Shown one piece after another: positions 16,108 through 40,413 of a DNA stretch of 64,000 bases. A model generated the notes under the pieces. It had not been told where the DNA came from. It saw only the letters and a program-made list of their open reading frames with translations, and ran no database searches. Source of the DNA: Klebsiella phage vB_KM5a1-KLB31. Positions within the stretch are counted from its first letter, which is position 1, and each line of letters starts with the position of its first letter. The position numbers and the translations under genes are program-made. Location of the stretch: the sequence record PP582757.1; one strand, 5' to 3'.

Positions 16108-16635
16108 TCAGTAGCCTCGGTCTTGACGAGCGAAGTTCTCAGCATTTTTCAGATGATACAGCTTGTATATTTCTTCTGCGTCCATGCCAAGAGCCATGAA
16201 CTTATTCAAGAAGAAGTGCAGCTGATCGATGAGTTCGAATTTAATTTCAAGCTGGTCTTCAGGAGACAGGTCTTTAATTTTCTTGGCCTGCATTTCAGCA
16301 TGCTGAGCTTTCCAAGGTTTCCAGATAGCCGATGCAGCTTTTTCGCCGTTGCTCATACCGCCTAATGCAGTATAAAGTTCACGAGTTTCATCGCCAATAT
16401 AATCATCGTTAGCACGCAGCCAAGCCAATACTTCACCAGCTGTTTCCAGTGAATCAGGATGACGATTATGCTCAGGCTTATCTTTAGCCAGACGAATCTG
16501 CAGAGATTTCTGCATATCAAGCATTGCCTGCAGTGGGTCTTCATTGCCACGCAACATACCGTAATAACGACCAGTAGCATGGTCAAGAGCAGCTTTATCT
16601 TTTACTAATTGAGAACATTCATTAAAATGAGCCAT
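16108..16635 (-). CDS. 56: dCTPase/dUTPase (dCTP pyrophosphatase, MazG-like), gene 56
   Basis: Start at MAHFNEC. Matches to recalled T4 gp56: DPLQAMLDMQ, LETAGEV, SPEDQLEIKFEL, NFARQDRGY. Confidence 0.85.
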   Translation of the reverse strand: MAHFNECSQLVKDKAALDHATGRYYGMLRGNEDPLQAMLDMQKSLQIRLAKDKPEHNRHPDSLETAGEVLAWLRANDDYIGDETRELYTALGGMSNGEKAASAIWKPWKAQHAEMQAKKIKDLSPEDQLEIKFELIDQLHFFLNKFMALGMDAEEIYKLYHLKNAENFARQDRGY

Positions 16636-16671
16636 TTTATTTCCTTTCAATTCAAACGTAGAATAATTATA

Positions 16672-21558: not shown

Positions 21559-21884
21559 CTTTTCTTCATATTAATTTGTTTGAGCTGTTCATTAATCTGC
21601 ATTGTAACACATTTCTCAACATGTTCTGCGAGTTCGCTCTTACGTTCTTCGGAAGGAGTACCAAAATCAACGGTCACTTGACCTTTTGGAGAAATATCAA
21701 TCTTCGTTACATACACCATATGACTGGAGCCGTCTGGAAGTGTTAATAATATCTCCTGCATAACAGCGCCCATGGACTGTTTAATAATGTCTAAAGACTT
21801 TTCAAAATACCGAGGGTCACTAGGACCCTCAGCACTGTCTTTGACAAAGTTGTCCAGGTCGGACAAATCTAAGTCATCACTCAT
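21543..21884 (-). CDS. hypothetical protein at the gene 40 position
   Basis: 113 aa acidic protein between 41 and uvsX. Confidence 0.35.
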   Translation of the reverse strand: MSDDLDLSDLDNFVKDSAEGPSDPRYFEKSLDIIKQSMGAVMQEILLTLPDGSSHMVYVTKIDISPKGQVTVDFGTPSEERKSELAEHVEKCVTMQINEQLKQINMKKRWWKW

Positions 21885-23067
21885 TAAAGTGTTCCATCAT
21901 GTTGTCTTCCATCTGGTCTAATGCATTTTCGTTATCAGCCGCAGATGGTTTGCCAGGTTTACCCAAGTCTGGAATCTTATTGGATGGTTTAGCATTCAAC
22001 AGATCGGCAACAGCGTCATCGACTTCTTTAATCGAAGAAATTGCACCCAGTTTGTACTTGGTTTCGATTGCATCACGGAATGGTTTATGCTTGAACAGAG
22101 GACCCCAGAATTCAACATCATCGGTTGCCTTAGCACGCCATGATTTTTCTTCTTGAAGCATTTCACCTGTTTCTTCGTCTAGATAAGAACGAGCATACCA
22201 ACCAGCTTTTGGTTTCACTACAAAGCCAAGATCTGTAGCCATTTCCAAGAGACCAGAGAATGGGTCAATACCACCTTTAAAGTTCACCGTAATTGGGAAC
22301 GTGGATTTCTCTTGAACAGTACGAGACTTTTCAGCTTTCAGTGTGAAGTCATAACCGGTGAGTTCAGTACCATCTTTAATCTGACGCTTAGAGATATAGA
22401 ATACCGTCGAAGCGGAATAAAGAATACCAGTACCACCACCCATGATTTCTTTAGGGTACATGCCACCAATTTCCATCGCCGTATGGTTAATCGCTACGCA
22501 CGGAATATCTTTAATAGTCAGATATGGCGTTACGATACGGAACAGAGATTTCAGTGACTTAGCACGAGACATATCACCAACTTCTTTCTCGTCCAAGGCA
22601 TCCTGCGTTTCTTTCTTAGATGCAGTGTTACCGATGGAGTCGATGAAGATAATAACCTTTTCACCACGTTGGATTTCTTCCAGCTGGTTAGTCATATCAA
22701 TCTTCAGTTTTTCTACTGACTGAATCGGAGTATGCACAACACGTTCCAGGTCTACACCCATTGAACGGAAGTAAGATTCAGAAGCACCGAATTCCGAGTC
22801 ATAGAACAGACAAATCGCATCTGGGTATTTCTTCATATATGCGGCAACCATCGTAAGACCAAACAGAGTTTTAAAGTGTTTGGATGGCGCAGCGAAAATA
22901 GTCAGACCAGATTGTAAGCCAGTGTTCAACCCACCACCTAATGCGATATTCAGCATAGGAATACGAGTAGGAACTTCGTCACGACCGTTAAACAGTTTAG
23001 ACTTAGTCAGATCGGCAGTCAGTTTAGTAGTAGAAGCTTTAATCAGGCGAGATTTCAAATCGGACAT
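21877..23067 (-). CDS. uvsX: UvsX recombinase (RecA/Rad51 family)
   Basis: 396 aa; RecA-like core with FAAPSKHFKT P-loop-like segment and C-terminal acidic tail; position after 41/40 as in T4. Confidence 0.85.
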   Translation of the reverse strand: MSDLKSRLIKASTTKLTADLTKSKLFNGRDEVPTRIPMLNIALGGGLNTGLQSGLTIFAAPSKHFKTLFGLTMVAAYMKKYPDAICLFYDSEFGASESYFRSMGVDLERVVHTPIQSVEKLKIDMTNQLEEIQRGEKVIIFIDSIGNTASKKETQDALDEKEVGDMSRAKSLKSLFRIVTPYLTIKDIPCVAINHTAMEIGGMYPKEIMGGGTGILYSASTVFYISKRQIKDGTELTGYDFTLKAEKSRTVQEKSTFPITVNFKGGIDPFSGLLEMATDLGFVVKPKAGWYARSYLDEETGEMLQEEKSWRAKATDDVEFWGPLFKHKPFRDAIETKYKLGAISSIKEVDDAVADLLNAKPSNKIPDLGKPGKPSAADNENALDQMEDNMMEHFNE

Positions 23068-23160
23068 TATATTTTTCCATTAGTCACCATTATATTCTTC
23101 TCACGTTTAAAAGGTAGAGTAATTATATACCCTAGGTTCAACAGCACACAAAACTTTAAA

Positions 23161-23385
23161 CTAACTCAACGTATATGTTTCACCAGTAGGCTTAACCGGA
23201 GTGGATTCACATATCTCGTATTGTTTATGGCATTTCTCACAGAAACCATGCCACCAACAATTCATTCCATCACCACCACAAGTCCCTTCATGAACAAAAC
23301 GCATATGGTTACAATTATAGCAACGGAATTGTGTAGCCTGATAGATTTTATAGGCTACATTACTTTTATCATTAATTATCGACAT
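23161..23385 (-). CDS. Cys/His-rich small protein (putative zinc binding)
   Basis: 74 aa with 9 Cys: CYNCNH...CGGDGMNCWWHGFCEKCHKQYEIC. Confidence 0.4.
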   Translation of the reverse strand: MSIINDKSNVAYKIYQATQFRCYNCNHMRFVHEGTCGGDGMNCWWHGFCEKCHKQYEICESTPVKPTGETYTLS

Positions 23386-23403
23386 ATTTTCCTCACAGGG
23401 CTC

Positions 23404-23955
23404 TTAACGAGCCCATTTGATAATCATTGAAATCAATGCATCACGTTCGCCGGCATTAAAACCTTTGATACGATTATCACCATAATGGTTTAGTAATTGA
23501 TAAATTTCAACATCATTATTAAGAGCGAACTCTTCAAACAATGCAATAACCTTGTTAAAACCTTCAGAACTCAGAGAAATCAAATCATCTTCAAAATCTT
23601 GAGTCATTTCATTACGAGTCAGAATAATTGGCAGAACTTTATGTTCATCACAAAAACGTTGGAAATCTTGTTCATACATATCAAGTTCTTTTTCTGAACC
23701 ATTACGAAGAGCACCATAAACCCAGTTTGAAATATAACCACGGTCTAACAGATAAATCTTAGATGGGTCGAGGTATTTCAGCATGGTTTCAAAGCAGGCC
23801 ACTTCATTACGACTCTTGATATCGAATCGACCATCTACGGTACGTTTAGGGAATTCGATTTTCACATAACGATCAGAGATTTCACAAACATCACGAATAA
23901 AAGTCGTTTTGCCCGCATTATCGCCGCCGTCAACTAAAATAATTTTGGTCTTCAT
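23404..23955 (-). CDS. P-loop nucleoside/nucleotide kinase-like protein
   Basis: 183 aa; Walker A ILVDGGDNAGKTTF. ATGA-coupled to the upstream transferase-position ORF. Confidence 0.5.
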   Translation of the reverse strand: MKTKIILVDGGDNAGKTTFIRDVCEISDRYVKIEFPKRTVDGRFDIKSRNEVACFETMLKYLDPSKIYLLDRGYISNWVYGALRNGSEKELDMYEQDFQRFCDEHKVLPIILTRNEMTQDFEDDLISLSSEGFNKVIALFEEFALNNDVEIYQLLNHYGDNRIKGFNAGERDALISMIIKWAR

Positions 23956-24851
23956 TCGTTAATCACCACATCGTTGTATGAAGGTATATTATATGGCGAA
24001 GAAATATAAGCACCAAAGTAAATGAACTCCGCCAGACCTGGATGGAATACTTTATTTGGGTCTTCAAAGTATTGAATCTTCGGACGTGCAGCCAATGCAC
24101 GATAATACTCTGATTTGCTTAACTTAATTTTGCGAATAACAGCTTCTTCTGGATAACGAGAACGATCAAAACTATCATTTGGGTCTGTGATATAGATTGG
24201 ATTATGAGTCTGGATTCCACATTCTACAACCTGACCAAAACGATAACATTCGTCAGAGATTCGGAATGGGTGGAAAATTCCATCATAACGAATGGGAGGA
24301 AGATCACCCATCATCCGCCGGATTACGCTAGGACGCACTACTTTCTGGTCTACGACAATCTTATAGTCAGTAGCCCCATGTGCAACCAGGACGTCTTTCT
24401 GACACTGATTTAATACAGTAGTCAGCTTACCAAAGTTCACAGACTCAACATCAACATCAATGAACTCATCAATATAATAACGAGGAACTTCTGGGTCTTT
24501 AGTTATATTGAAGTTGAAATACACAGGATGCTTTCCACGATAACCAGTTATATCAGTCACCACACCTACGACATCATAATATTCAACTAAAGAATCAACT
24601 ACGAATTGGTTCTCTTCCCAGAAATGCTTACGTGTTTCATAGGCATTTTCTTTGTACCATAAAGGAACAAATTCGAATTCTGGGAATAATTCACGGAGTT
24701 CGTCGACATCAGTTGCATTATGAGGAACAGCAATGATATCGCCAGAACGGGCACGGTGCAAATGAAGCTGGAAGTTGCCATCCTTAAGGACAGCATACTC
24801 ACCAGTTGCATGAGACCGCATACTAAAGATTGGTACACGGAAATGTGGCAT
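23952..24851 (-). CDS. hypothetical protein occupying the T4 beta-glucosyltransferase slot (candidate hmC-DNA sugar transferase)
   Basis: 299 aa; TAATG-coupled to gene 42; no recognisable similarity to T4 Bgt; role inferred from position only. Confidence 0.35.
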   Translation of the reverse strand: MPHFRVPIFSMRSHATGEYAVLKDGNFQLHLHRARSGDIIAVPHNATDVDELRELFPEFEFVPLWYKENAYETRKHFWEENQFVVDSLVEYYDVVGVVTDITGYRGKHPVYFNFNITKDPEVPRYYIDEFIDVDVESVNFGKLTTVLNQCQKDVLVAHGATDYKIVVDQKVVRPSVIRRMMGDLPPIRYDGIFHPFRISDECYRFGQVVECGIQTHNPIYITDPNDSFDRSRYPEEAVIRKIKLSKSEYYRALAARPKIQYFEDPNKVFHPGLAEFIYFGAYISSPYNIPSYNDVVINE

Positions 24852-25549
24852 TAGTCAAGGAATCCTTTAACATATTCGAAGTCACGTTCGAAAACGTGGG
24901 CTGACACCATTGTATGAGTGTATGTACCTACTTTAACACCGCATTGTTCAGCAATAAAGTGCATCAGTTTGCCTTGGAGATAGAAATCCAATTGCATAAC
25001 AACAGCACAGTTCTGTGAACGCATATGACAATGAGCATGAAGCTTACCATCACGAATATAATATGTCACTGAGTCTGTGCATGGATATTCTAACGATTCG
25101 TCTGAATCAAGTAATGCCTGGTCGGACGATTCCAGGATTTGGAACACAACTCGACGTGAGTTTGGTTTCTCTTTGAGTTCCTTAAGGAGCGCCGGTAACT
25201 GAGCCACGATTCTTGGTCCATAGAACGTGTTGAAATTTGCTGGGAGTGCATCTGATTTTGGTTTTGAAATAAATTTAGCAACATTAGGATATTCCTTAAA
25301 TGCTTCTAATGCATCAGTGCCACCAGAAATCATGAACTTCCAGAAGTCTTCAGCATAATCATAACTAATGCGATTAATACGAGAATCAGACATCTTGAAA
25401 GTTTCTGGATGCTGGACAACTAGAGTCATTGAACCAATTTCATTACAACGACCAATACGAGAATCAGTTACGAATTCTGGGTTGTCGATAATTTCACGGT
25501 TGGCTGCTTTGAATACGTCTTGGAAAAATGGGAAGTTAAAATATTTCAT
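24851..25549 (-). CDS. 42: dCMP hydroxymethylase (thymidylate-synthase fold), gene 42
   Basis: Active-site region EYPCTDSVTYYIRDGKLHAHCHMRSQN matches recalled T4 gp42 (MCTNTVQYLIRDKKINAVVNMRSND). Start at Met whose ATG overlaps the upstream TGA. Confidence 0.8.
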   Translation of the reverse strand: MKYFNFPFFQDVFKAANREIIDNPEFVTDSRIGRCNEIGSMTLVVQHPETFKMSDSRINRISYDYAEDFWKFMISGGTDALEAFKEYPNVAKFISKPKSDALPANFNTFYGPRIVAQLPALLKELKEKPNSRRVVFQILESSDQALLDSDESLEYPCTDSVTYYIRDGKLHAHCHMRSQNCAVVMQLDFYLQGKLMHFIAEQCGVKVGTYTHTMVSAHVFERDFEYVKGFLD

Positions 25550-25785
25550 TCGATTGTGCTCTGACATAGTTTACTCACTTTAAAAATTTCTTGATATATC
25601 GATTTTAACTTATCCGGAGTTTCAGCAAGTTTAATTTTTTCAATATCAAGATTTTCAATAGGGATACCGAATTTGCGTTTGATTTTGCCTATCTTATGTG
25701 TTAAGCAAAATCTGTCAAGAAGTAAATTTATAATTTCTTCATCTATAAGATTGACCTCCTCACGGAGGTCATCAAGTTCTGTCAT
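25546..25785 (-). CDS. chorismate mutase-like protein (AroQ class)
   Basis: 79 aa. LREEVNLIDEEIINLLLDRFCLTHKIGKIK follows the AroQ helix-1 pattern LRxxIDxIDxxLLxLLxxRxxLxxxIGxxK. ATGA-coupled to both neighbours. Confidence 0.55.
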   Translation of the reverse strand: MTELDDLREEVNLIDEEIINLLLDRFCLTHKIGKIKRKFGIPIENLDIEKIKLAETPDKLKSIYQEIFKVSKLCQSTIE

Positions 25786-26963
25786 TCTGGGTACCTCATA
25801 GCATCATCACTATTATCTGTAATCGACACAATCTGAATAGAATTCAGAGGCATATCATTCTTAGACAATTGACGCTTATAGTAACGCTCACAATAGGTGC
25901 AAGTAGAACCACAGACTTCATTAGCACAATCAAAGTCAGGATGTTTGAACCAGCGTTTCATTAAGAAGCCGTCAAGCAATGAAGTTTCGATGTTTACTGT
26001 ATGACTGTAGTTCGCATCGGACTCGTTGTTATAGATGGTTTCTAGTGGCTTCCAGAGCTCAAGGAGATTGCCTTCAAATTTCTCAGAGGAATATGCCTCT
26101 AAAACTTTCATGATGTACTCTGTTGACCCTGTACGTCCTGACACTTTAAATTGAGTGATACCGATGTCACGATATAACTTCAGGTCCTGTGGACGAACGA
26201 AACGTGTACGCAGCCAGTTGAATGGGTCGGTGTCACGAGCTTTGATGCAGTGTTGCATCGGGTAACCATCCAATGATTGTGCATCTTCTGGTGTAGAGTC
26301 GGTACTGTGGAAAATATAGCAAGAATCACGATAACTGCAATGAGTGGTATAACCTTTACCAGCATTAGAGCAGAATTCATTGACCAAAATTTCAAAGATG
26401 ATTCCATTGTCATTACAGAATTTAGCGGCTTGTTTTAAGAATGACACACTACGGTTTTTATGAATACCACAGCATACTTTCTTGATATTATACTGGTCAT
26501 GAAGATACTTAATCTGAGTTACGGCGTCTACGTGCAGGATAGTCGAGATTTCGAATTCGATTTCAGTATTAACTTCACGAACAATTTGCATTACGATTGG
26601 GTTAGCAACAGTAATACGATATACGCCAATTGACCAGAGATATTGGACATATTCTTGGATAGCTTTCTTTTTCCATGAATCAAGTTCACGTTTGGTACCA
26701 GGATTAATACTGTTGAATGTATAGTTGAAGCAAATACCCAGTTCATTACAACGAGCTACATATTTTTCGAGCTCTTCATCTTTTACGTCAGGCAGACGGA
26801 AGTCTGGACGAGCGGCAACAAAGGCCATGGCTCGTGTAGAACCATAGACTTCGTTGATAAGTGAATCAGGGTTTTTAGCATTCAGCTCGACAATTTTATC
26901 CAGCAGGGCTAGGTCAAAGTTTGTACCAATTTTGAAAGTTTGTTTATGGTTTTGCATTTTCAT
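25782..26963 (-). CDS. peptidase U32 family-like protein (candidate prephenate-dependent hydroxylase, RlhA/TrhP/UbiU-like); Cys-rich
   Basis: 393 aa. N-terminal EVYGSTRAM and GVYRITVANPIVMQIV resemble U32 TIM-barrel blocks; EFCSNAGKGYTTHCSY resembles the U32 signature; C-terminal CANEVCGSTCTYC cluster. Tentative, by eye only. Confidence 0.4.
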   Translation of the reverse strand: MKMQNHKQTFKIGTNFDLALLDKIVELNAKNPDSLINEVYGSTRAMAFVAARPDFRLPDVKDEELEKYVARCNELGICFNYTFNSINPGTKRELDSWKKKAIQEYVQYLWSIGVYRITVANPIVMQIVREVNTEIEFEISTILHVDAVTQIKYLHDQYNIKKVCCGIHKNRSVSFLKQAAKFCNDNGIIFEILVNEFCSNAGKGYTTHCSYRDSCYIFHSTDSTPEDAQSLDGYPMQHCIKARDTDPFNWLRTRFVRPQDLKLYRDIGITQFKVSGRTGSTEYIMKVLEAYSSEKFEGNLLELWKPLETIYNNESDANYSHTVNIETSLLDGFLMKRWFKHPDFDCANEVCGSTCTYCERYYKRQLSKNDMPLNSIQIVSITDNSDDAMRYPE

Positions 26964-27005
26964 CTCTTTTAAGCAGGAAAAGGATGCGATGTTTGCAGGC
27001 TTTTA

Positions 27006-27392
27006 TTATAGATTTGGTTTGTACGATTTAAATGTTTCGAATTCGCCTTTATTCATAAGGCTTTTGAATTCATCAGGACGCATAGCTTTGTCGTCGATAA
27101 TCCAATCATACACTGGTTTATGTGTCAGCAATTCATGGAACTTCAATCCGATATTAGCCAGGTTCTGAAGCAGGCCTGGAAGAATATCAACAGCAATACG
27201 CCCTGGTCCTACAGATTTCATACCACGTGCCGTATAAAGTGTTATGTGGTGCCCTTGGTCATACAAAGCATTAATGGCGGACACCATTTCGATGTCCGGC
27301 TTAAAGTTCGCATAATCACGGTCATGGTTCCATTCAGTGATGCAGTCATCTACATCAAAGCACAGTCTGAGCATGTTTTCTACGCGATGCAT
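27006..27392 (-). CDS. HAD-superfamily phosphatase-like protein (KdsC/GmhB-like sugar-phosphate phosphatase)
   Basis: Motif I FDVDDCIT, motif II LYTAR, motif IV WIIDDKA; about 128 aa. Confidence 0.5.
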   Translation of the reverse strand: MHRVENMLRLCFDVDDCITEWNHDRDYANFKPDIEMVSAINALYDQGHHITLYTARGMKSVGPGRIAVDILPGLLQNLANIGLKFHELLTHKPVYDWIIDDKAMRPDEFKSLMNKGEFETFKSYKPNL

Positions 27393-29071
27393 TATCTGAT
27401 TCGTTCCCATTGGTGAGTGATATCGCCACCGACTGGCTTATAGACTTCGCCAGTTTCTTTATCGATGAGTTCCCACTTATCAGAGTTCTTCGTAATAAGT
27501 GTTGCCGTAATAGCTTGAGGCAGGTCTTTAGCAACCGTACCATCTTTCAACATACGTCCCATTTTACGCAATTGTTTTGTCAGCAAATACATACCGTAGT
27601 AATAAGCTGAAACTGCTTTCAACGGGTTGTTCTTGAAATAACCACCGAGTGCAATCCAAATAATTGCTACAGCCAGATGATGGTGTTCATTGAACGTATC
27701 CATCTTCTCATATTTGTAGACCAGCGGTTCGATATTAACCATTGCTTGTTCGCCTTCAATGGTTAAACCACCCCATAATGAATCGGCATTAAAATCATCA
27801 TAGCCACTTACAGCATAAAGTACTTTAGCTTCATCATAAAGACGAGGACCATATACTTTTGTGTTGCCGAAATAACCACGTGGGTCAATGAATTTAATAT
27901 CAGCATCACATTCAGTAATCATAGTGTTGCTGAAGTTTGGGTCCCCGTGAATAACGTGATACGGCCGAGAATATTGATAGTTAATAAGATGATTTAATGC
28001 CTGCTTCAGCATAGGCTTCAGACGACCAATCTTAACACCATTCACATGAGTAATCTTACCAAATGAATCAATCACTGGTTGAATACTTGCACAACGATCA
28101 AGAACTTTATCATGAAATTCTTTCTTAAAGTCTTCTTCCATTTCAGGATGGATTTGATAGAAGCTCTTATCATTAAATCGTAAGGCATCAAGAACTTTAT
28201 CAATCATGCTGATACGAGCATTTGATTTCAAAGTTTTAATATGTTCAAACATTGATGGGCCTTTGATACGTTCCATCGTGAAACTTGTACCATCACGAGA
28301 ATAAATCTTAGGCACTGAATCAGATTGAACTGCATCATACCAAGCAAGTTCATCTTTCTGAAGGTCTTTACCTTGTTCGGTCAGAGCAAACTTCTCAACA
28401 TAATCAGTGTTGATTTCTACTGCATTGAAACTACGATTCAGTTCACGAACTTCATGGGCTTTTGCCAATTTAGGCTTATCACCCAAGTCAATGAGATTCA
28501 TCAATTCGGATTGAACGAAGCTTTCGCCATACAGGAAATCTACAAAGTCTTGTCCAGCGCACCATTCATTCATTTCTTCTGGTGTATCACCCATATAAAA
28601 TTCCCAGTCAGCTAACTGGTAAATGCCTACAACGTTACCACCTGTCGCACCGACATTGCTGATATGAGTACCATCAAAGTTATAACGGCATTCATCACCT
28701 TTCGTATAAATGGTGTTTCGTCCCCATGACCATGAACCAAAGTCAGGAATAATGTCACACCAGTTTACGACTACGTTATGGCCATGCAGCATTTTATCCA
28801 TTGTTGCCATTGCATAAGCCGAACCAAATGCTTCATCTACGACATGAATCGTAATGTCCAGACCTTCTTGGGCTGCATATGCTTTAACTGTTTCAACGAA
28901 ACGAGATGCAACAACGACAATAATTTCTTCAGCACCAAGGTCTGAATAAATCATGTACAGATTTTTTAGAATGGTGTCTTGCTTATAGTTTACAAGCACT
29001 TTCGGGATATGATGAGTGATTGGGTATAAACGAGTTGCCAATCCAGCTCCGAGAATAACAGCCTTTTTCAT
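27392..29071 (-). CDS. bifunctional sugar-1-phosphate nucleotidyltransferase (N-term) / APH-ChoK-like sugar kinase (C-term)
   Basis: N-term ILGAGLATRLYPIT...PKVLV (NTP-transferase G-x-G-x-R motif). C-term HVIHGDPNFSNTMI...KFIDPRGYFG (Brenner HGDxxxxN plus D-x-G). Start chosen at MKKAVILG with GAGGA SD. Confidence 0.6.
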   Translation of the reverse strand: MKKAVILGAGLATRLYPITHHIPKVLVNYKQDTILKNLYMIYSDLGAEEIIVVVASRFVETVKAYAAQEGLDITIHVVDEAFGSAYAMATMDKMLHGHNVVVNWCDIIPDFGSWSWGRNTIYTKGDECRYNFDGTHISNVGATGGNVVGIYQLADWEFYMGDTPEEMNEWCAGQDFVDFLYGESFVQSELMNLIDLGDKPKLAKAHEVRELNRSFNAVEINTDYVEKFALTEQGKDLQKDELAWYDAVQSDSVPKIYSRDGTSFTMERIKGPSMFEHIKTLKSNARISMIDKVLDALRFNDKSFYQIHPEMEEDFKKEFHDKVLDRCASIQPVIDSFGKITHVNGVKIGRLKPMLKQALNHLINYQYSRPYHVIHGDPNFSNTMITECDADIKFIDPRGYFGNTKVYGPRLYDEAKVLYAVSGYDDFNADSLWGGLTIEGEQAMVNIEPLVYKYEKMDTFNEHHHLAVAIIWIALGGYFKNNPLKAVSAYYYGMYLLTKQLRKMGRMLKDGTVAKDLPQAITATLITKNSDKWELIDKETGEVYKPVGGDITHQWERIR

Positions 29072-29112
29072 TGTGTGTTCCTCATTAAATGGTACGTCCA
29101 TTGTACCATCAG

Positions 29113-29256
29113 TTAATTGAAGCAATTGTACTTGGCCTGGAGCCACATCATAACCCAAGCTACAATAAGAGTTGGAATCATTACTGGGGCGTTAATAGCC
29201 CAGTAAATAGTCATTCCAAAGAAAACAAGCAATAAAATACCTGCAGTGTACTTCAT
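29113..29256 (-). CDS. small hydrophobic peptide (47 aa)
   Basis: MKYTAGILLLVFFGMTIYWAINAPVMIPTLIVAWVMMWLQAKYNCFN; ATGA-coupled to the SIS isomerase gene. Confidence 0.3.
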   Translation of the reverse strand: MKYTAGILLLVFFGMTIYWAINAPVMIPTLIVAWVMMWLQAKYNCFN

Positions 29257-29882
29257 TTGTCACCACGGAGTTGAGCACCAAGTGCACCACCAGGATGGAA
29301 GCGTAGGAAGTCTTCAGGCGTAAAATTACGTGCGGCTGAAAGGTTAATTGCGAATGTATCAATCAGAGCCAAGAGCAATGTCGTAGACATCGTAGGCGCT
29401 AATTTGTTATCGTCAATCTCGATAGCCTTGCCTGTACAGAAGGTATAGTCAAACATCTTCAGAATATCTTTAGACAGGTCTGGATTGCAATGAAGAAGAA
29501 TCTGATTCACACCAGGACGAATGCCACGCAGGTGCGCAACGACGCCTAACATTTCTTCGGTCTTGCCTGAACGAGAGATATGAACCAGAACATCGTCAGG
29601 TCCAATGAAGCCTGCATCACCATGGGAATAATGTCCGGTGTTCAGATACATACTTGGAATACCAAGCGAGGCCATTGTTTCTGAAGCCTTAGTGGCGATA
29701 TTAGCGTTTTTACCTACGCCGGTGATAATTACACGACCTTCGTAGTTAGATAAACCAGGGATGCCTAGAACGCTCAGGATTTGAAGATAGTTTTTCTCAT
29801 CATTCTGAACAACAGAAGTCAAGATGTCAAGAGCCTGAGCCTGAAGAACTAGAGCATGTTTAGCACGATCAATTGGATTCAT
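29253..29882 (-). CDS. SIS-domain sugar-phosphate isomerase (KdsD/GutQ arabinose-5-phosphate isomerase-like, no CBS domains)
   Basis: 209 aa; ITGVGKNANIATKASETMASLGIPS and HGDAG match the SIS core of API enzymes. Confidence 0.6.
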   Translation of the reverse strand: MNPIDRAKHALVLQAQALDILTSVVQNDEKNYLQILSVLGIPGLSNYEGRVIITGVGKNANIATKASETMASLGIPSMYLNTGHYSHGDAGFIGPDDVLVHISRSGKTEEMLGVVAHLRGIRPGVNQILLHCNPDLSKDILKMFDYTFCTGKAIEIDDNKLAPTMSTTLLLALIDTFAINLSAARNFTPEDFLRFHPGGALGAQLRGDK

Positions 29883-30378
29883 TTTTTAAACCATATTCAA
29901 CACATTCATTAACGATACGACCTGAAGAATCACGAACCTTCACAAATTCGGTCGCTGCGGCACGAGCTTTCTTTGAATTAAACCCGTGTTCTAGAATAGC
30001 CTTTTCATATCGGTCCTGATATCCGGCTAAATGGATATCCATACCACGTTGGCACTTATTATACACTGCCATACGTTTGTAAGCATCTTTTTCACGCTTA
30101 ACAATTCGTTCCCATTCAGGATTACCGGCAGCTTCTTGGGCAGCACGTTCACGGTCCATTTTTAAAGCAAGTTCGGCCTGGTTAGCACAGTTCTTTCCAC
30201 ACTGGTTGTTCTGGCGTGTGTAAACGATGCCGGTCCCATTATGCCACTGCAATTTGCCTTGAGTAATTTTGGCATCAGCGGTCTCACGAACTTGTCCAAC
30301 TTCATGATCGTAGACGGTTGGTCCTTGTAAGGCGCATCCGGATAAAAATAGTACTGCAAGTAAAGCTATTCGTTTCAT
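29869..30378 (-). CDS. putative lipoprotein
   Basis: 169 aa; signal plus lipobox LLAVLFLSGC; at the T4 imm position. Confidence 0.5.
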   Translation of the reverse strand: MKRIALLAVLFLSGCALQGPTVYDHEVGQVRETADAKITQGKLQWHNGTGIVYTRQNNQCGKNCANQAELALKMDRERAAQEAAGNPEWERIVKREKDAYKRMAVYNKCQRGMDIHLAGYQDRYEKAILEHGFNSKKARAAATEFVKVRDSSGRIVNECVEYGLKNESN

Positions 30379-30429
30379 TTTATTTTCCTCAATGTTTCAA
30401 GTAAACTACCACATCCTTGTGGCAGCAAA

Positions 30430-33132
30430 TTAGAAGTCGAACATATCGAACAGACTTGCCTTCTTCTCATAATCAATCTTGGCTGCATCTGTAAAACCGG
30501 TCAGAGGTTTAACAAATGACTTCTGGAACAGAACGTTGTAGTCCATCCAAGCCAGAACCTGATCTTTGATTTGAGGTGGCAGTTCGATACCACTCGGCCA
30601 AGACATAACACGATCACCAAATGGGTTACCTTCACGAAGTGGCAGAACATAAACTTTCTCACCATCAACGATTTGTGGGACTGTAAGGTCACCTTTGGTT
30701 GCACGCATGTACGTCAATGCACCGCGAATATGAGCTGGGCACTTAGGACCTGGGAATCCATTATCGTTGTACTTCATGATGTTGTTCGCAGAACTTACAC
30801 CAGCGATGCTGATATAATTCAATTCGTTGAATTCTTTGTTGAACTCTTTGAAATAAGACTGCAGACTTTCTTCACCTTCTTGAAGCATACGACGAATACA
30901 TTCTTTCAATGCTTTCTGTACGGCTTTAGGAGTAGATGATTTCTGAGTTTCAAGACCCATAATCTTCAACTTAGGTTCAACGAAACGAGTACCTTCCATG
31001 TCCCATACGTTCAGGGCGTATCGTTTCTTACCAGTCCAGAACCCACCAATACCTTTAGAACCTAGTGGTGGTCCAGCGATAGCTTCTCGGTCCATGAACA
31101 TCAGGTGTTCTTTGTTGTTCATGTATTCACACATTTCACGGAAGCCTGCATCAATAGCCGGTTCCATACGTTCACGTGCAAACTTATCTAAGAAGTCGAC
31201 ATAATGGTTTGTATCACGGAACTTGTCCATGCCTACTTTTTCCAGAATCTTATCAGCCTTCACATAAATCGAGTCTGTATCACCGTACAGCACGAATGCT
31301 TCATTTTCAGTACCAAGAGTTTTGTTCAGATATTCGTTAACCTTACGTTCAATCCACTGCAATGCCATCTGACCAAAGGTTGTGATAGCCGTAGCATTTC
31401 GAAGATCATAATAACGGAACCATACGTTACCAAGTGCACCATAAAGTGAGTTGATAAGCAACTTACGGTTAATCTGAGCCGTGTTACCTGCAACTTCACA
31501 ACGTTCTGCCTTGAAAAGCATTGCTTCTAATGCCTTCTGAGATAGTTCATGAAGTTTTGATTTCACTTCATCATCAAAGTCAAAACGATAATCAACTTCG
31601 AACTCAGGATTCTCACCTTTAGTTGTTTTCTTGGCTTCTTTAATTACTTCTTGGTTACGTTGTGCAGCCAGCATATAGTTTTTATGTTCTTTACGTTGTT
31701 TGAACACTTTAGTGATTTCAACTGGAACTACACCAGCGAAACTCTTATCATACATCATACCATTCGGAGAACAACTGAATTCATCTGACGGACGTGGAGC
31801 TGTCCCAGCAATATATTCATGCAATGGATGAAGTTTGAACTGACCGCGTAATGTTTCTGGACTGATATTAACCTGACGAATGATACTTGGGTACAGAGAT
31901 GTCAAGTCAAAGCTCATTACATATTTGTAGCTGTTCGGAATCGGTTCTTTAACAAATGCACCAGGATAAGGCAGAACTGGGTGTGACTGCATTTGTGGAA
32001 TAACTTTCTTCTGGTCTTTCAACGAATTGAAGATAATAGCGTCCCAAGTCTTAATTGGACTGAACACTGATTGAATCTGCATCTTCGCATAATAACCCAT
32101 CGACAAACTCAGGTTAATGAACTGGCGTTTCATGTCGATTTGAATAACACGATACACATCGATAATGTTATAAGAAATATAACGTTGATGGTTCGTTTCA
32201 CGTAATTTGGAAATAGGACCATCATAAGGCAGTTTGCCGACCTTCAATTCGTATTCAGACACATAGTCCAAAGAATAAGATGGCTGGTTGGTGAAACTGA
32301 ATTTCTTATAAAGGTCGATATAATCCAGCATACTGATACCGTACAACTGAATAATCTGACGAGTACCATACATGTTCTCAACTTCTTTAATACGAACACG
32401 ACGGTGTGGTGACAGACGTTTAGCAGTACTTTCACTGAACAGGTTCTTCAAACGGTTATACACGTACGGCACGTCAAATGCCTCAACGTTCCAACCAGTC
32501 AGAACTACTGGGGTCTTTTCTTCCCACAGGTTCAAATATTCAAGCAGAAGTTCTTTTTCATCATCGAACGGCATATAAACGATTTTTTCTGCAATTTCTT
32601 CAGGCAGTGCATCACCACCTTGTTCTTCAATCTTACGAGCAAGTTCTAGTGACCAACGTCTCACATTACCATATGGAGAACCAAGAAGGTCAAACACATA
32701 GAAACGATCGTCGATAGAATCATAATGTGTGATTGCGTCAATCGGATGTTTAGCTTCAGCAGGTTCAGGGAATCCATCAGGAGATGTTACCTCGATGTCA
32801 AAGTTAGCCACACGAATTTTAGTTTGGTCATAATGAATTTCACCACGATAAGTGTCACTGATATAGGACAATTTGTAGTCGTCCATACCAAGAGCTTCAA
32901 GACCCATATCGTCCATACGTTTCATCCAATCTTTGGCTTCACGCATGGTTTCAAATGGTTTCTTCTTACAATACTTTCCGTAGATATCTTTATATTCAGT
33001 TTCTTCGTTAGTGTGCATGAACATGCATGGCGCATAAATCACTTCACGAGTTTGTTCCCGACCATTCTTATCAATGAATCGTTCAAAGATTTTATCACCG
33101 GCTTGTTCGACTGTCAAATAAAATTCTTGCAT
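30430..33132 (-). CDS. 43: DNA polymerase (family B), gene 43
   Basis: 900 aa; exo motifs FDIEV and YNIIDV; pol motifs SLYPSII, YGDTDS, KKRYA; near-collinear with recalled T4 gp43. Confidence 0.9.
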   Translation of the reverse strand: MQEFYLTVEQAGDKIFERFIDKNGREQTREVIYAPCMFMHTNEETEYKDIYGKYCKKKPFETMREAKDWMKRMDDMGLEALGMDDYKLSYISDTYRGEIHYDQTKIRVANFDIEVTSPDGFPEPAEAKHPIDAITHYDSIDDRFYVFDLLGSPYGNVRRWSLELARKIEEQGGDALPEEIAEKIVYMPFDDEKELLLEYLNLWEEKTPVVLTGWNVEAFDVPYVYNRLKNLFSESTAKRLSPHRRVRIKEVENMYGTRQIIQLYGISMLDYIDLYKKFSFTNQPSYSLDYVSEYELKVGKLPYDGPISKLRETNHQRYISYNIIDVYRVIQIDMKRQFINLSLSMGYYAKMQIQSVFSPIKTWDAIIFNSLKDQKKVIPQMQSHPVLPYPGAFVKEPIPNSYKYVMSFDLTSLYPSIIRQVNISPETLRGQFKLHPLHEYIAGTAPRPSDEFSCSPNGMMYDKSFAGVVPVEITKVFKQRKEHKNYMLAAQRNQEVIKEAKKTTKGENPEFEVDYRFDFDDEVKSKLHELSQKALEAMLFKAERCEVAGNTAQINRKLLINSLYGALGNVWFRYYDLRNATAITTFGQMALQWIERKVNEYLNKTLGTENEAFVLYGDTDSIYVKADKILEKVGMDKFRDTNHYVDFLDKFARERMEPAIDAGFREMCEYMNNKEHLMFMDREAIAGPPLGSKGIGGFWTGKKRYALNVWDMEGTRFVEPKLKIMGLETQKSSTPKAVQKALKECIRRMLQEGEESLQSYFKEFNKEFNELNYISIAGVSSANNIMKYNDNGFPGPKCPAHIRGALTYMRATKGDLTVPQIVDGEKVYVLPLREGNPFGDRVMSWPSGIELPPQIKDQVLAWMDYNVLFQKSFVKPLTGFTDAAKIDYEKKASLFDMFDF

Positions 33133-38201: not shown

Positions 38202-38433
38202 CTTCCCACTCGCTTTTAATTAACGTTTCAGCTAATTGTATCACAGAAGCATCGGTGTCATCTTTATATGCATTAAAACTGAACTCGTAGCCGACATCAG
38301 TAGAAATATAATATGAAACCACTTTGCCTGAATTATCCAGGCATTTTTCAATATCATATTTGATGTGGAAAGTTTGGTCGAAATTCTCAACGTAACAAGT
38401 ACCATGCAGCATATTGCTATTAGCAGAAATCAT
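38188..38433 (-). CDS. hypothetical protein
   Basis: 81 aa ORF between 46 and 47. Confidence 0.4.
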   Translation of the reverse strand: MISANSNMLHGTCYVENFDQTFHIKYDIEKCLDNSGKVVSYYISTDVGYEFSFNAYKDDTDASVIQLAETLIKSEWEDENV

Positions 38434-39449
38434 TTACTCACCTCAATATAAAGTTGTTTGGCTAAAGACTTCAATGACTTACGGTCTTCATCAGAATGAC
38501 CATCAGGCAGTGCATCGATATAATCTTCCATCAGGTCTAACAATGATTTAATATCAATTTCTTCATCTGCTTCGCCTTCAACAGAGTCATCAACCTTTGA
38601 GACTACACGTAATGAATGGACTACTTTTTCAAGTTCACTTTCGAACTTAGGTAATCCTTTATCGATTGACTCAACAATAACACGCACTGCCAGATTTTTA
38701 AACTCGTCGTATTTGATTGTTTCGTTGGGATAACTAATCTTACGGTGCCATGTTGTAGGATTTGGGACGAAGTCAAACGTTTCTTTTTGAGTGTCCTGAA
38801 CCCAGAATCCTCGAGGGTCATTTTCGTCGCCCGCTGTAAGCGTCCACGGTGTGCCAATGTATTTGACATTAGCTGCGCTAGAGATTGTGTGGAAATGGCC
38901 TGACCACACTTGTTTGTATTTTTTGAGGAAGTCTGGTTCGAGCCCATGAGATTTCATTCCTTTATAGAAGTAGAAGCCATTCAGCTCCCAGTGACCAATA
39001 CAATATTGAGCAGAGCTTGTCTTGATGTGTTCCATTATTTCGGTCGTGTTCTCATCACACATCCATGGAATCAGGTCAATCAAAGTACCGTCAAAGTCAA
39101 ATGATACAGGCTTTTCAATCACAGTGATATGAGCATATTTACCAAGAACTTCTGTTGCCGCATTAGGAGTCAGAGTATTCTTGTAATGCATATCATGGTT
39201 GCCAACAATCGTAATCAGATGAATACCAGCTTCTTCAAGCTCATTAGCAATCTGACGAGCAAATTCCATGCACTTATGGGTAATTGCTTTACGTACGTCG
39301 AAGATATCACCATATTGAATAATGGTTTTGATGTTATGCTTTTTAGCATAAGCGATGTGGTCTCTGATACCCTTTAATTGGATTTCTTGGACCCACGGGT
39401 CATCGGCCTTAACACCTAAGTGCCAGTCGCCAGAATGGATAATTTTCAT
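38430..39449 (-). CDS. 47: recombination endonuclease subunit (Mre11/SbcD-like phosphoesterase), gene 47
   Basis: 339 aa; MKIIHSGDWHLG, GDIFD, GNHD calcineurin-like phosphoesterase motifs. Confidence 0.85.
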   Translation of the reverse strand: MKIIHSGDWHLGVKADDPWVQEIQLKGIRDHIAYAKKHNIKTIIQYGDIFDVRKAITHKCMEFARQIANELEEAGIHLITIVGNHDMHYKNTLTPNAATEVLGKYAHITVIEKPVSFDFDGTLIDLIPWMCDENTTEIMEHIKTSSAQYCIGHWELNGFYFYKGMKSHGLEPDFLKKYKQVWSGHFHTISSAANVKYIGTPWTLTAGDENDPRGFWVQDTQKETFDFVPNPTTWHRKISYPNETIKYDEFKNLAVRVIVESIDKGLPKFESELEKVVHSLRVVSKVDDSVEGEADEEIDIKSLLDLMEDYIDALPDGHSDEDRKSLKSLAKQLYIEVSK

Positions 39450-40164: not shown

Positions 40165-40413
40165 TTAATCCTTTGGAGTTAGTTCAAGTGTGATATAGAA
40201 ATTATCATCAGTTACATGATAGCGATATTCTATATCATTATCATCGCTGGTCAAGTGAACTTCACCAGGATTCATAGGGTCTATTTTTATCGGCAACTTC
40301 TCAACATCCCGTAAATACATCTTAAGCAAATACGGTACTGCAGTGATGTCGCCGACTTCTTCAAGGAACCCAGCGAGGTTAATTGTTAGCCTCATATAAA
40401 AAATCCAATCCAC
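40165..40413 (-). CDS. hypothetical protein
   Basis: 82 aa ORF. Confidence 0.4.

Follow-up and report, generated by a model that had tools for sequence, protein, structure and literature searches.

The closest described relatives of the locus analysed here are the gp45-gp55 cluster of phage RB69, the Afh cluster of phage HY126 and the cluster of Serratia phage LC53 (Lee et al. 2026, PMC13326640; He et al. 2026; Mahler et al. 2025). Work from 2025-2026 showed that the product of the RB69-type system is arabinosyl-5-hydroxycytosine (ara-5hoC) (PMC13326640). The RB69 base had earlier been described as arabinosyl-hydroxymethylcytosine (hmC), an assignment now called erroneous (PMC13390438), and was re-determined as ara-5hoC, with an ether link at C5 (PMC13326640). 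RB69 gp48 is a verified flavin- and O2-dependent 5-hydroxy-dCMP synthase for which the D169N rule is diagnostic, and the oxygen added by the phage TS-type synthase comes from O2 (PMC13326640). According to the account of He et al. (2026) given in section 27 of PMC13326640, the kinase domain of the HY126 bifunctional enzyme turns arabinose-5-phosphate into the 1,5-bisphosphate, from which the HAD phosphatase strips the 5-phosphate; isomerase, bifunctional enzyme and phosphatase are enough for UDP-arabinose.

Acinetobacter phage DLP3 (gp76-gp83) shares with our locus the D169N synthase, HAD phosphatase, bifunctional enzyme, isomerase, Tmk-like kinase and GT-B transferases, but has three transferases, no U32 protein and no chorismate mutase (PMC13326640 Table 1). 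The glucosyl-hmC system of T4 (gp42, a-gt, b-gt, gp56, gp1) has the same logic and genomic slot as our locus. In both, a TS-fold enzyme would modify dCMP before replication, a dCTPase would exclude dCTP, and a GT-B enzyme would glycosylate the DNA after replication. They differ in C5 chemistry, which is folate-dependent hydroxymethylation in T4 and is predicted to be flavin/O2 hydroxylation here, and in sugar donor, which is host UDP-glucose in T4 and would be phage-made UDP-arabinofuranose here.

Lineage and layout of the cluster

The window, a 64,000-nt stretch of Klebsiella phage vB_KM5a1-KLB31 (PP582757.1), contains at 23404-29882 what we take, with a probability of roughly 0.85, to be a module for ara-5hoC hypermodification of DNA, in a phage that is a Kanagawavirus-like relative of T4. 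The nucleotide sequence of the region shares 92% identity with that of Kanagawavirus PEi20, and the Kanagawaviruses are listed as one of the groups in which the cluster is conserved (PMC13326640). The hypermodification system is already known; since the window belongs to a Kanagawavirus relative of Edwardsiella phage PEi20, it is a further carrier of that system. The host lineage is Edwardsiella-type, unlike that of RB69. Between uvsX and the DNA polymerase gene the window has the RB69/HY126/LC53-type order of Tmk-like kinase, GT-B transferase, D169N TS homologue, U32 protein, HAD phosphatase, bifunctional enzyme and SIS isomerase. A gene-by-gene comparison matched RB69 gp45-gp55 throughout, at 62-89% protein identity, with the gp49 slot as the sole exception; there the window has an AroQ chorismate mutase and RB69 an unrelated 79-aa protein. 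These orthologies and the profile matches below bear out an earlier note on this DNA, which had proposed a phage hypermodification module of the RB69 lineage.

All of the cluster genes are on the minus strand. Most junctions are translationally coupled, as the earlier note had said of the whole run, with overlaps of 14, 19, 4, 22, 1 and 4 nt; the exceptions are gaps of 181 nt between the isomerase and bifunctional enzyme genes and of 42 nt between the HAD and U32 genes. The larger gap contains a minus-strand ORF for a small hydrophobic (membrane) protein of 47 aa (29113..29256). Its start overlaps the isomerase stop codon, and small ORFs are annotated at the same position in PEi20 (ORF-048) and RB69 (gp54). 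Every ORF named in that note exists, on the minus strand and with the limits it gave, but the U32 and chorismate mutase genes lying inside its coordinates had been left out. It had assigned the enzymes by motif only, a description now outdated in that close orthologues of several parts have been experimentally characterised. Elsewhere in the window, a gp56 dCTPase homologue (16108-16650) supports the core module.

The base branch

In the position of T4 gene 42, the window encodes a TS-superfamily protein (24851..25567; Pfam Thymidylat_synt 2.2e-16) that is predicted to be a flavin/O2-dependent 5-hydroxy-dCMP synthase. Its best solved relatives are PDB 9iqc/9ir2 (6.3e-141) and 9iqu (5.2e-139), and it is 66-70% identical to the synthases of Acinetobacter phages. 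At ThyA positions 143, 146, 169, 177 and 80 it has E, C, N, D and A, which gives the D169N/N177D/L143E signature.

The gene had previously been read as gene 42, encoding a dCMP hydroxymethylase, with hmC as the base. A T4-type enzyme and DNA with arabinosyl-hmC would be in keeping with a TS-fold gene at this position, with the dCMP-specifying Asp at ThyA position 177 and with the arabinosyl-hmC reported in a 2018 paper on RB69 (PMC6024577). That reading now appears extremely improbable. The protein is 26.6% identical to T4 gp42 against 85.7% to RB69 gp48, a 5-hydroxy-dCMP maker (PMC13326640); it carries D169N and lacks W80, which contacts the folate. The hmC assignment in RB69 has since been corrected (PMC13326640, PMC13390438), and the extra CH2 is missing from the mass of the modified nucleoside in RB69, NP, DLP3 and others. 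Comparison with the T4 proteins found no T4-type gp42 in the window. Judged by these comparisons, "gene 42" is a 5-hydroxy-dCMP synthase and not a dCMP hydroxymethylase.

The Tmk-like P-loop nucleotide kinase (23404..23955), an orthologue of RB69 gp45 (72% identity), matches PHROG 761 "thymidylate kinase" (1.2e-42) and possibly has 5-hydroxy-dCMP as its substrate. In the base branch as we envisage it, the TS-fold enzyme would hydroxylate dCMP at C5 with flavin and O2, as demonstrated for its orthologues. The phage dNMP kinase would then probably phosphorylate the 5-hydroxy-dCMP, perhaps together with the Tmk-like kinase of the cluster, and DNA polymerase would insert the hydroxylated nucleotide in place of dC.

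The sugar branch and arabinosyl transfer

The predicted arabinose-5-phosphate isomerase (29253..29882) is a SIS-only protein, 70% identical to its RB69 orthologue gp55, that matches Pfam SIS (3.5e-8) and PHROG 5670 "arabinose 5-phosphate isomerase" (2.7e-108). Its NCBIfam matches to KpsF/GutQ (6.8e-34) and KdsD (3.4e-30) both fall short of the cut-off, since the protein has no CBS domains. The bifunctional sugar kinase/sugar-1-phosphate nucleotidyltransferase (27392..29071) is AfhE-like and corresponds to RB69 gp52:53 (65% identity to gp52 and 79% to gp53). It has an N-terminal NTP-transferase domain (Pfam NTP_transferase 1.9e-9, on residues 32-130 of a longer ORF at 27392-29158) and a C-terminal APH/choline-kinase-like domain. 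We place the true start at 29071 (MKKAVILGAG) since residue 30 of the longer ORF is where the PHROG profile starts to match. Matches to the enzyme included PHROG 4098 (6.6e-284), NCBIfam sugar-1-phosphate nucleotidyltransferases (down to 6.7e-13) and PDB 1jyk (1.2e-4). Its kinase domain had no significant Pfam profile match; a distant homologue matches Pfam APH at 0.0058.

The HAD-superfamily phosphatase (27006..27410) is AfhF-like, 89% identical to RB69 gp51, and is predicted to be an arabinose-1,5-bisphosphate 5-phosphatase. It matches its solved orthologue PDB 9iqw (2.3e-80), PDB 1xpj (3.7e-10) and the NCBIfam capsule biosynthesis phosphatase model TIGR01689 (2.8e-12); a Pfam search gave no match at E<0.01. 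The motifs previously noted in these proteins, ILGAGLATRLYPIT and HGDPNFSN...IDPRG in the bifunctional enzyme and FDVDDCIT (with DVDD) in the phosphatase, occur verbatim in the translations, and of the Pfam families then expected, SIS and NTP_transferase were recovered but not the kinase or HAD families.

Given 65-89% identity to RB69 orthologues that PMC13326640 equates with the HY126 enzymes, the isomerase would convert ribulose-5-phosphate to arabinose-5-phosphate, the kinase domain would produce arabinose-1,5-bisphosphate, the HAD phosphatase would remove the 5-phosphate, and the nucleotidyltransferase domain would make UDP-arabinofuranose. The earlier proposal of an NDP-pentose made from a pentose-phosphate-pathway intermediate and transferred onto a modified cytosine is therefore supported; the order it gave, with dephosphorylation before the anomeric kinase, is the reverse of that in HY126 (He et al. 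2026, as cited in PMC13326640).

By orthology, the sugar is predicted to be arabinose. The homologous genes of Shewanella phage Thanatos, including a U32 gene at 79% identity, accompany a pentose of uncertain identity (PMC12838424), and the module could likewise attach a sugar other than arabinose, be it a pentose or not. We consider this very unlikely, since the arabinose-5-phosphate isomerase is kept and the whole sugar branch closely resembles that of RB69, in which arabinose is proven by NMR (PMC13326640).

The predicted transfer enzyme is a 299-aa protein (23952..24851) orthologous to RB69 gp46:47 (72% identity to gp46 and 62% to gp47), which are one ORF in reality (PMC13326640). Sequence searches of Pfam, NCBIfam and the PDB gave no match. 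Its AlphaFold model (pLDDT 94.7) has a GT-B fold, with Foldseek matches to HepE (4xso, 1.5e-6), MshA (3c4q, TMq 0.61) and UDP-GlcNAc 2-epimerases. Orthology and modelled fold suggest a DNA 5-hydroxycytosine arabinosyltransferase 1, which would attach arabinose to DNA cytosines at their 5-hydroxyl group. A search of the 64-kb window, including the interval between rIIA and gene 39, found no second or third arabinosyltransferase of the RB69 gp3 type. T4 has both a-gt and b-gt, whereas tblastn of all 64 kb detected no homologue of either (best E 0.95 and 1.6), in agreement with the absence reported earlier. Genes 47 (38430-39449) and 55 (40379-40951) are 930 nt apart, and the matching PEi20 interval contains only the small a-gt.2 to a-gt.5 ORFs.

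The U32 protein and chorismate mutase

The orthologue of RB69 gp50 (25782..26963, 393 aa, 84% identity) belongs to the Peptidase_U32 family (Pfam 1e-11, above the gathering score). It aligned with E. coli TrhP/UbiU/UbiV/RlhA in hhalign (probability 96.5%, E 8e-10), and the top PDB structure match of its AlphaFold model (pLDDT 92) is the U32 protein Mk0906 (5d88). The phage proteins are nevertheless a separate, divergent subfamily relative to the cellular U32s, with no PDB sequence match and UbiU as the only NCBIfam match (1.3e-3). Nine cysteines are invariant among 40 homologues. Two of them correspond in the alignment to TrhP C170 and C177, which are Fe-S ligands, but these are only two of the four canonical positions; the spacing is CX10CX5CX23C versus CX6CX15CX3/4C, and there is an extra C-terminal CX4CX3CX2C cluster. 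Across 15 T4-like loci, this is the most conserved protein of the cluster (mean 90%, versus 55-82% for the others).

The start of the neighbouring AroQ-class chorismate mutase gene (25546..25785, 79 aa; chorismate to prephenate) overlaps the U32 stop by 4 nt. The mutase matches Pfam CM_2 (1.3e-9, above the gathering score), PDB 1ybz (2.9e-7) and 1ecm (7.5e-3), and 16 of its 19 NCBIfam matches are chorismate mutase models. The catalytic residues appear to be kept: R8, R25, K36, E49, S71 and Q75 align with EcCM R11, R28, K39, E52, S84 and Q88, as read by eye from alignments, S84 and Q88 by analogy through 1ybz.

From comparative evidence, we tentatively propose, at a little under even odds, that the two genes form a cassette for an O2-independent route to the hydroxylated base. 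The U32 protein would be an iron-sulfur, prephenate-dependent C5 hydroxylase like RlhA, TrhP and UbiU/V. RlhA and TrhP produce 5-hydroxycytidine in rRNA and 5-hydroxyuridine in tRNA, respectively, both in a prephenate-dependent manner (PMC5727448, PMC6599085), and prephenate is the oxygen donor of UbiU/V (PMC10990095). The mutase would raise the prephenate supply, and the U32 protein would take oxygen from prephenate and use it to hydroxylate cytosine at C5, either in a nucleotide or in DNA. This is the ring chemistry of RlhA (rRNA ho5C2501), on a deoxynucleotide or DNA instead of the RNA or ubiquinone of the cellular U32s. Dual pathways exist in TrhO (O2) and TrhP for tRNA ho5U and in UbiI/H/F (flavin, O2) and UbiU-UbiV for ubiquinone; the window likewise combines an O2-dependent enzyme with a predicted U32 Fe-S protein, maybe for the same hydroxylation, and shares with the cellular U32 pathways the link to prephenate supply. 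If this is true, modification would be possible while a facultatively anaerobic host grows without oxygen. We found no proposal of a prephenate-dependent, O2-independent cytosine hydroxylase in a phage in the accessible literature; He et al. 2026 (Nat Chem Biol) and Mahler et al. 2025 (Cell Host Microbe), outside that scope, may already assign or exclude such a role.

The U32 protein occurs in 221 phage records, all with at least 79% identity, and the mutase in 47, lying no more than 500 nt from U32 wherever a record is in both listings. LC53 and PEi20 carry the mutase. The two genes also come and go together in a single genus, with both in PEi20 and CIP9 and neither in Q7622. Against the proposal, RB69-type Mosigviruses have U32 with the unrelated 79-aa ORF in place of the mutase, and Dhakaviruses and some Kanagawaviruses of facultative anaerobes lack U32. 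The TS-type synthase is found in 57 Acinetobacter and 16 Rhizobium phage records, and neither name is among the ten commonest for U32 (each with at least 3 records) or among the matches listed, distant query included. The U32 hosts among the matches listed were all Enterobacterales or Shewanella. The host of DLP3 is a strict aerobe.

We also searched 7 kb on either side of 31 distant, full-length U32 loci (39-53% identical). The isomerase and bifunctional enzyme were present at 12 of these, a homologue of the 299-aa transferase at 10 (often overlapping U32), and DAHP synthase at seven, in five of them fused to CM_2. Among 137 neighbours in 26 de-replicated loci, the commonest Pfam families were Thymidylate_kin (8) and DAHP_synth_1 (7), with CM_2 (5) level with NTP_transferase and SIS. 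The only TS genes within the 7 kb were canonical ThyA (D169, N177, L143), and a TS-type synthase could be encoded further out on these contigs.

Alternatively, the U32 protein could work in the sugar branch or as a sugar/heterocycle reductase, with the mutase as an unrelated auxiliary metabolic gene. The U32 gene sits between base-branch and sugar-branch genes, its distant homologues often adjoin the isomerase, bifunctional enzyme and glycosyltransferase and in some cases epimerase/dehydratase genes, and RB69 gp50 has been labelled a "sugar or heterocycle reductase" (PMC13326640). Such a role is unlikely, in that UDP-arabinose formation in HY126, as PMC13326640 reports it from He et al., needs no fourth enzyme, and DLP3 makes the same ara-5hoC without any U32 (PMC13326640 Table 1). 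It would also leave unexplained why U32 is repeatedly linked to chorismate mutase and DAHP synthase. We know of no U32 family member that is a reductase.

A somewhat less likely explanation is that the U32 protein, with the mutase, hydroxylates RNA, such as ho5U34 in host or phage tRNA or ho5C2501 in rRNA, tuning translation during infection and having nothing to do with DNA. T4-like phages encode tRNAs. Both U32 enzymes characterised on nucleic acids have RNA as their substrate and depend on prephenate (PMC5727448, PMC6599085). However, the phage protein is without the C-terminal extensions of RlhA and TrhP (653 and 453 aa), and from T4-likes to probable Prevotella phages its gene is inside or overlaps DNA-modification and pyrimidine-nucleotide genes, including those for glycosyltransferase, Tmk-like kinase, dCMP deaminase, dUTPase and DNA polymerase. 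The DAHP synthase-chorismate mutase fusion is closest to Prevotella proteins, which account for all nine named matches within the best 120 (52-55% identity).

Gene order and the modified base

Region 23000-30500 of this T4-like phage is 92% identical at the nucleotide level to the Edwardsiella phages PEi20 and PEi26 (genus Kanagawavirus). All genes of the cluster region are on the minus strand, flanked by DNA polymerase gene 43 (30430-33132) on one side and uvsX (21877-23067) on the other. Read from gene 43, the cluster encodes a SIS isomerase (29253-29882), a bifunctional nucleotidyltransferase/kinase (27392-29071), a HAD phosphatase (27006-27410), a Peptidase_U32 protein of 393 residues (25782-26963), an AroQ chorismate mutase of 79 residues (25546-25785), a thymidylate synthase (TS) homologue (24851-25567), a 299-residue protein (23952-24851), and a Tmk-like kinase (23404-23955). 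Adjoining genes overlap by 14, 19, 4, 22, 1, and 4 nt, with just two short gaps. The ORFs, motifs, and coupling described in an earlier note on this sequence are therefore real; its gene list holds for the ORFs it named but omits the U32 protein and the chorismate mutase, both of which lie within the same span. Across the cluster, neither predicted promoters (22 found, 23.9 expected) nor terminators (6 found, 5.3 expected) exceeded chance.

Small minus-strand ORFs accompany these genes. A lipoprotein-like ORF of 169 residues (29869-30378; signal MKRIALLAVLFLSGC) belongs to PHROG 1754, a family of unknown function, and at its 3' end shares 14 nt with the start of the isomerase gene. A very hydrophobic 47-residue membrane ORF (29113-29256), whose start overlaps the isomerase stop codon, lies in the only sizeable gap between cluster genes and takes up most of it; small ORFs are annotated at this position in PEi20 and RB69. 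Between the Tmk-like kinase gene and uvsX is a Cys/His-rich ORF of 74 residues (23161-23385; CYNCNHM...CGGDGMNCWWHGFCEKCH) from PHROG 11273, also a family of unknown function, which possibly encodes a zinc-binding protein.

Except at the gp49 position, gene content and order are those of RB69 gp45-gp55. Identity to the RB69 proteins is 70% for the isomerase (gp55), 65-79% for the bifunctional enzyme (gp52:53), 89% for the phosphatase (gp51), 84% for the U32 protein, 86% for the TS homologue, 62-72% for the 299-residue protein, and 72% for the kinase. Kanagawaviruses were already among the groups reported to have a syntenic cluster (Lee et al., NAR 2026, PMC13326640), and the cluster studied here is a further, Kanagawavirus-lineage member of the system published in 2025-2026.

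We aligned the TS homologue with ThyA, T4 gp42, and RB69 gp48 using MAFFT. At the E. coli ThyA positions it has N169, D177, E143, and C146, and position 80 is Ala rather than Trp, whereas T4 gp42 retains both D169 and W80. Asn at position 169 is the diagnostic residue of 5-hydroxy-dCMP synthases (Lee et al., PMC13326640). The protein is only 26.6% identical to T4 gp42 and 85.7% identical to RB69 gp48, and its closest solved relatives are PDB 9iqc (6.3e-141), 9ir2, and 9iqu, all near 1e-140. Asn169 and Ala80 are not what is expected of a folate-dependent dCMP hydroxymethylase orthologous to gp42, in which Asp169 is retained. Together with Asp177 and the catalytic Cys146, these features mark the gene as that of a predicted TS-superfamily 5-hydroxy-dCMP synthase, and the base as 5-hydroxycytosine. 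The earlier note had called it gene 42 and the base 5-hydroxymethylcytosine (hmC), so that its observation of a hypermodification cluster was correct and its interpretation is partly outdated.

The DNA of RB69 and of Acinetobacter phage DLP3 contains mono- to tri-arabinosylated 5-hydroxycytosine, as determined by MS and NMR, with the arabinose ether-linked straight to C5 (PMC13326640). RB69 gp48 and DLP3 gp80 make 5-hydroxy-dCMP with oxygen from O2 and with a bound flavin (PMC13326640), and the earlier arabinosyl-hmC assignment was erroneous (PMC13390438). By orthology, the TS-fold enzyme of the present phage would hydroxylate dCMP in the same O2- and flavin-dependent manner, and its virion DNA is predicted to carry arabinosylated 5-hydroxy-dC in place of dC.

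For the cluster as the earlier note described it, an already characterized anti-restriction DNA hypermodification, the value lies in correct annotation: the labels "dCMP hydroxymethylase," "peptidase," "phosphoheptose isomerase," and "thymidylate kinase" are still widespread for such genes in public records.

Sugar activation and transfer

The isomerase is a SIS-only relative of KdsD and GutQ (Pfam SIS, 3.5e-8; KpsF/GutQ, 6.8e-34; PHROG 5670, 2.7e-108), as expected of an arabinose-5-phosphate isomerase. The N-terminal domain of the bifunctional enzyme is a sugar-1-phosphate nucleotidyltransferase (Pfam NTP_transferase, 1.9e-9). Its C-terminal domain gave no significant Pfam match and is identified as a kinase by orthology and by the motif HGDPNFSN...IDPRG (HxDxxxxN...D), which makes the protein a sugar kinase and UDP-sugar pyrophosphorylase of the AfhE type. 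The HAD protein (PDB 9iqw, 2.3e-80; TIGR01689, 2.8e-12) is a sugar phosphatase of the AfhF type.

In HY126, as far as the work of He et al. (2026) is described in PMC13326640, the kinase domain converts arabinose-5-phosphate to arabinose-1,5-bisphosphate, the HAD phosphatase then gives arabinose-1-phosphate, and this is converted to UDP-arabinofuranose. The earlier note had placed dephosphorylation ahead of the kinase step, the reverse of the HY126 order described there. For orthologues, O2- and flavin-dependent dCMP hydroxylation (PMC13326640), the three-enzyme route to UDP-arabinofuranose, and post-replicative arabinosylation of DNA have been shown; by orthology, the same sugar route and post-replicative arabinosylation would operate in the present phage.

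The 299-residue protein has no sequence-family match. Its AlphaFold model (pLDDT 94.7) is a GT-B glycosyltransferase with matches that include MshA (3c4q), likewise the top match for RB69 gp46:47 (PMC13326640, Table 1), and its 62-72% identity is to RB69 gp47 and gp46. It is thus a predicted GT-B DNA arabinosyltransferase adjoining the synthase. T4 α-gt and β-gt have no counterpart in the whole 64-kb window (tblastn, best E 0.95 and 1.6, respectively), in agreement with the earlier note. A further arabinosyltransferase of the RB69 gp3 type (di-/tri-arabinosylation) was not found in the window, which covers 64 kb of a roughly 177-kb genome (tblastn, best E 2.9), and the degree of arabinosylation is therefore not predictable from this part of the genome. 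Pfam showed no glycosyltransferase among ten of the larger ORFs outside the cluster; the matches were to DUF7235, a STAND-like NTPase, RlaP, and a tail needle knob.

The U32 protein and chorismate mutase

The U32 protein matches Pfam Peptidase_U32 (1e-11) above the gathering score of 22.4 bits, and hhalign aligned it to E. coli TrhP, UbiU, UbiV, and RlhA with 96.5% probability. Its AlphaFold model (pLDDT 92) is a U32 TIM barrel whose top Foldseek match is 5d88 (E 3.8e-7, TM 0.67). PDB sequence searches with the protein and a 40-sequence profile returned nothing usable, so its placement comes only from fold comparison and hhalign. Nine cysteines are invariant among 40 aligned homologues (down to 46% identity): C164, C198, C209, C215, C239, and the C-terminal cluster C346-x4-C351-x3-C355-x2-C358. 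C209 and C215 align with C170 and C177 of TrhP, which are Fe-S ligands, although the spacing is unlike the canonical CX6CX15CX3/4C of [4Fe-4S] sites (PMC6747719).

The mutase gene overlaps the U32 stop codon. The protein scores 38.5 bits against Pfam CM_2 (cut-off, 27), and alignments with 1ybz and 1ecm place its R8, R25, K36, E49, S71, and Q75 at EcCM R11, R28, K39, E52, S84, and Q88, the last two by analogy through 1ybz. We take the EcCM active site to be numbered R11', R28, K39, E52, S84, and Q88. With the CM_2 domain and these residues, the protein is an AroQ (type II) chorismate mutase. Such enzymes yield prephenate.

The characterized U32 proteins are all factors of O2-independent hydroxylations that need prephenate. 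RlhA makes 5-hydroxycytidine in 23S rRNA (PMC5727448), TrhP makes 5-hydroxyuridine in tRNA (PMC6599085), and prephenate is the oxygen donor of UbiU/V (PMC10990095).

Over 15 T4-like loci, the U32 protein is the best conserved of the cluster proteins (mean identity 90%, minimum 82%), followed by the TS homologue (mean 82%) and the remainder (55-80%). Within Kanagawavirus, the U32 and mutase genes are either both present (PEi20, CIP9, Entb_45, and the present phage) or both missing; in Q7622, which lacks them, the TS homologue abuts the phosphatase directly. Among isolated phages, 47 records, representing at least 11 host genera, contain the mutase, which is within 500 nt of U32 in each record common to both sets of results. 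The U32 subfamily has 269 matches, and the contigs of the members inspected are phage-like and reach 466 kb.

We searched 31 distant full-length U32 loci, 39-53% identical, with local phmmer. The isomerase and bifunctional enzyme also occur in 12 of these 31, a homologue of the 299-residue transferase in 10 (often overlapping U32), and DAHP synthase in 7. In an unbiased count over the 137 same-strand neighbors of the 26 de-replicated distant loci, the commonest Pfam domains were Thymidylate_kin (8), DAHP_synth_1 (7), CM_2, NTP_transferase, and SIS (5 each), and dCMP deaminase (4). TS genes within 7 kb on either side of the distant loci are all canonical ThyA, with D169, N177, L143, and W80.

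The DAHP_synth_1 neighbors could instead be KDO-8-P synthases that use arabinose-5-phosphate, the product of the isomerase. We rejected this assignment and kept the shikimate reading because five of the seven carry a fused CM_2 domain and the nearest named relatives have the annotation bifunctional DAHP synthase/chorismate mutase. All nine named matches to the fusion among the best 120 are from Prevotella, at 52-55% identity. Prevotella are obligate anaerobes, and this similarity therefore points to obligately anaerobic hosts for the phages with U32 and the fusion, a suggestion made from sequence.

Two distant loci, L012 (9145-9891) and L032 (8071-8817), have a stand-alone DAHP_synth_1-family protein of 248 residues with no chorismate mutase domain directly after U32. 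This protein is ambiguous, and may be either a DAHP synthase or a KDO-8-P synthase supplied with arabinose-5-phosphate by the neighboring isomerase.

Of 50,697 records of isolated phages, 369 contain the O2-dependent synthase, 57 of them from Acinetobacter phages and 16 from Rhizobium phages, and 221 contain U32. For U32, the hosts among the matches listed are all Enterobacterales or Shewanella; no Acinetobacter or Rhizobium phage appeared among the matches listed or the ten commonest names, and the same was true with a 50%-identical query.

We propose, from family knowledge and gene linkage, that the U32 protein and mutase constitute a viral, prephenate-dependent, O2-independent path to 5-hydroxycytosine in DNA precursors or DNA, a reading to which we assign slightly less than an even chance (about 0.45). 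The chorismate mutase would raise prephenate, and an Fe-S U32 enzyme would draw on it, in the absence of O2, for the C5 hydroxylation of a cytosine nucleotide, as the anaerobic twin of the flavin- and O2-dependent TS-type synthase. The neighboring Tmk-like kinase, dCMP deaminase, and dUTPase hint at a mononucleotide as the substrate, the alternative being DNA. Several observations speak against this path. The cysteine spacing of the U32 protein is non-canonical, RB69-type phages have U32 without the mutase, and several phages of facultative anaerobes lack U32. The RB69 counterpart, gp50, has been labeled "sugar or heterocycle reductase" in PMC13326640. That paper nowhere mentions U32, chorismate, or prephenate, and it holds the RNA hydroxylation pathways to be unrelated to the phage system. 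In the accessible literature we found no paper tying U32, chorismate mutase, or prephenate to phage DNA modification, and there the best-conserved gene of the cluster and its mutase partner are without an assigned role.

The comparative data lead to a specific hypothesis, inexpensive to test, of how a hypermodified DNA base could be made without oxygen. To our knowledge, the sole route to 5-hydroxy-dCMP requires O2. Edwardsiella, E. coli, Klebsiella, and gut Bacteroidota hosts often or always grow without O2, and a prephenate-dependent route would explain how the DNA of such phages is protected in anoxic guts. If the proposal is true, a U32 hydroxylase acting on a DNA-related substrate and a virus taking oxygen from prephenate would each be without precedent, and the probable Prevotella phages, with U32, the DAHP synthase/chorismate mutase fusion, and only canonical ThyA nearby, would depend on the U32 route alone. 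It would bring DNA chemistry into the U32 hydroxylase family and supply the soluble, easily assayed substrate that the family still lacks; none of the U32 hydroxylases has an in vitro assay (PMC10990095). It also predicts that oxygen affects how sensitive phages are to restriction and type IV systems, which matters for phage therapy.

Mosaicism and other features

Compared with PEi20 (loci L015 / L001), identity is 100% for the isomerase and the bifunctional enzyme, 98% for the phosphatase, and 99% for the U32 protein, then 67% for the mutase, 91% for the TS homologue, 79% for the transferase, and 95% for the kinase. The drop after U32 suggests that recombination occurred where the U32 gene meets the mutase gene. 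Between phosphatase and U32, PEi20 carries the homing endonuclease gene segC; the present phage has only a 42-nt gap there.

In RB69 (locus L003, 26256-26495), gp49 is a 79-residue ORF, the same length as the mutase, between the TS homologue and U32, and other Mosigviruses have the same arrangement. We considered gp49 as a cryptic chorismate mutase and rejected it because it has no BLAST similarity to the mutase studied here and no Pfam match even at E 10.

Two U32 homologues on large phage-like metagenomic contigs, 54-55% identical, are directly after dCMP deaminase: L009 (7447-9086), on a contig of 466 kb, where the two genes overlap by 4 nt, and L014 (7504-9083), on one of 60 kb. Nearby are genes for a thymidylate-kinase-like protein, UDG, DNA polymerase III alpha, and SSB, with no sugar genes within 8 kb. 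These could represent a different U32-dependent pyrimidine modification.

Elsewhere in the window, a plus-strand gene (52785-53558) encodes a 257-residue protein that combines a collagen-like repeat with a tail-needle-knob domain of the Sf6 type (Phage_tail_NK, 3.7e-29), a module that is unusual in a T4-like phage. Large ORFs on the plus strand are very few in this region, where transcription otherwise runs leftwards, and this one is annotated in PEi20 as well. Two minus-strand ORFs are possible defense or counter-defense genes: one at the nrdC.10 position (51191-52171), with weak matches to STAND/AAA NTPase and HTH domains, and one at the nrdC.11 position (53833-54843), an RlaP-type nucleotidyltransferase (8.8e-14).
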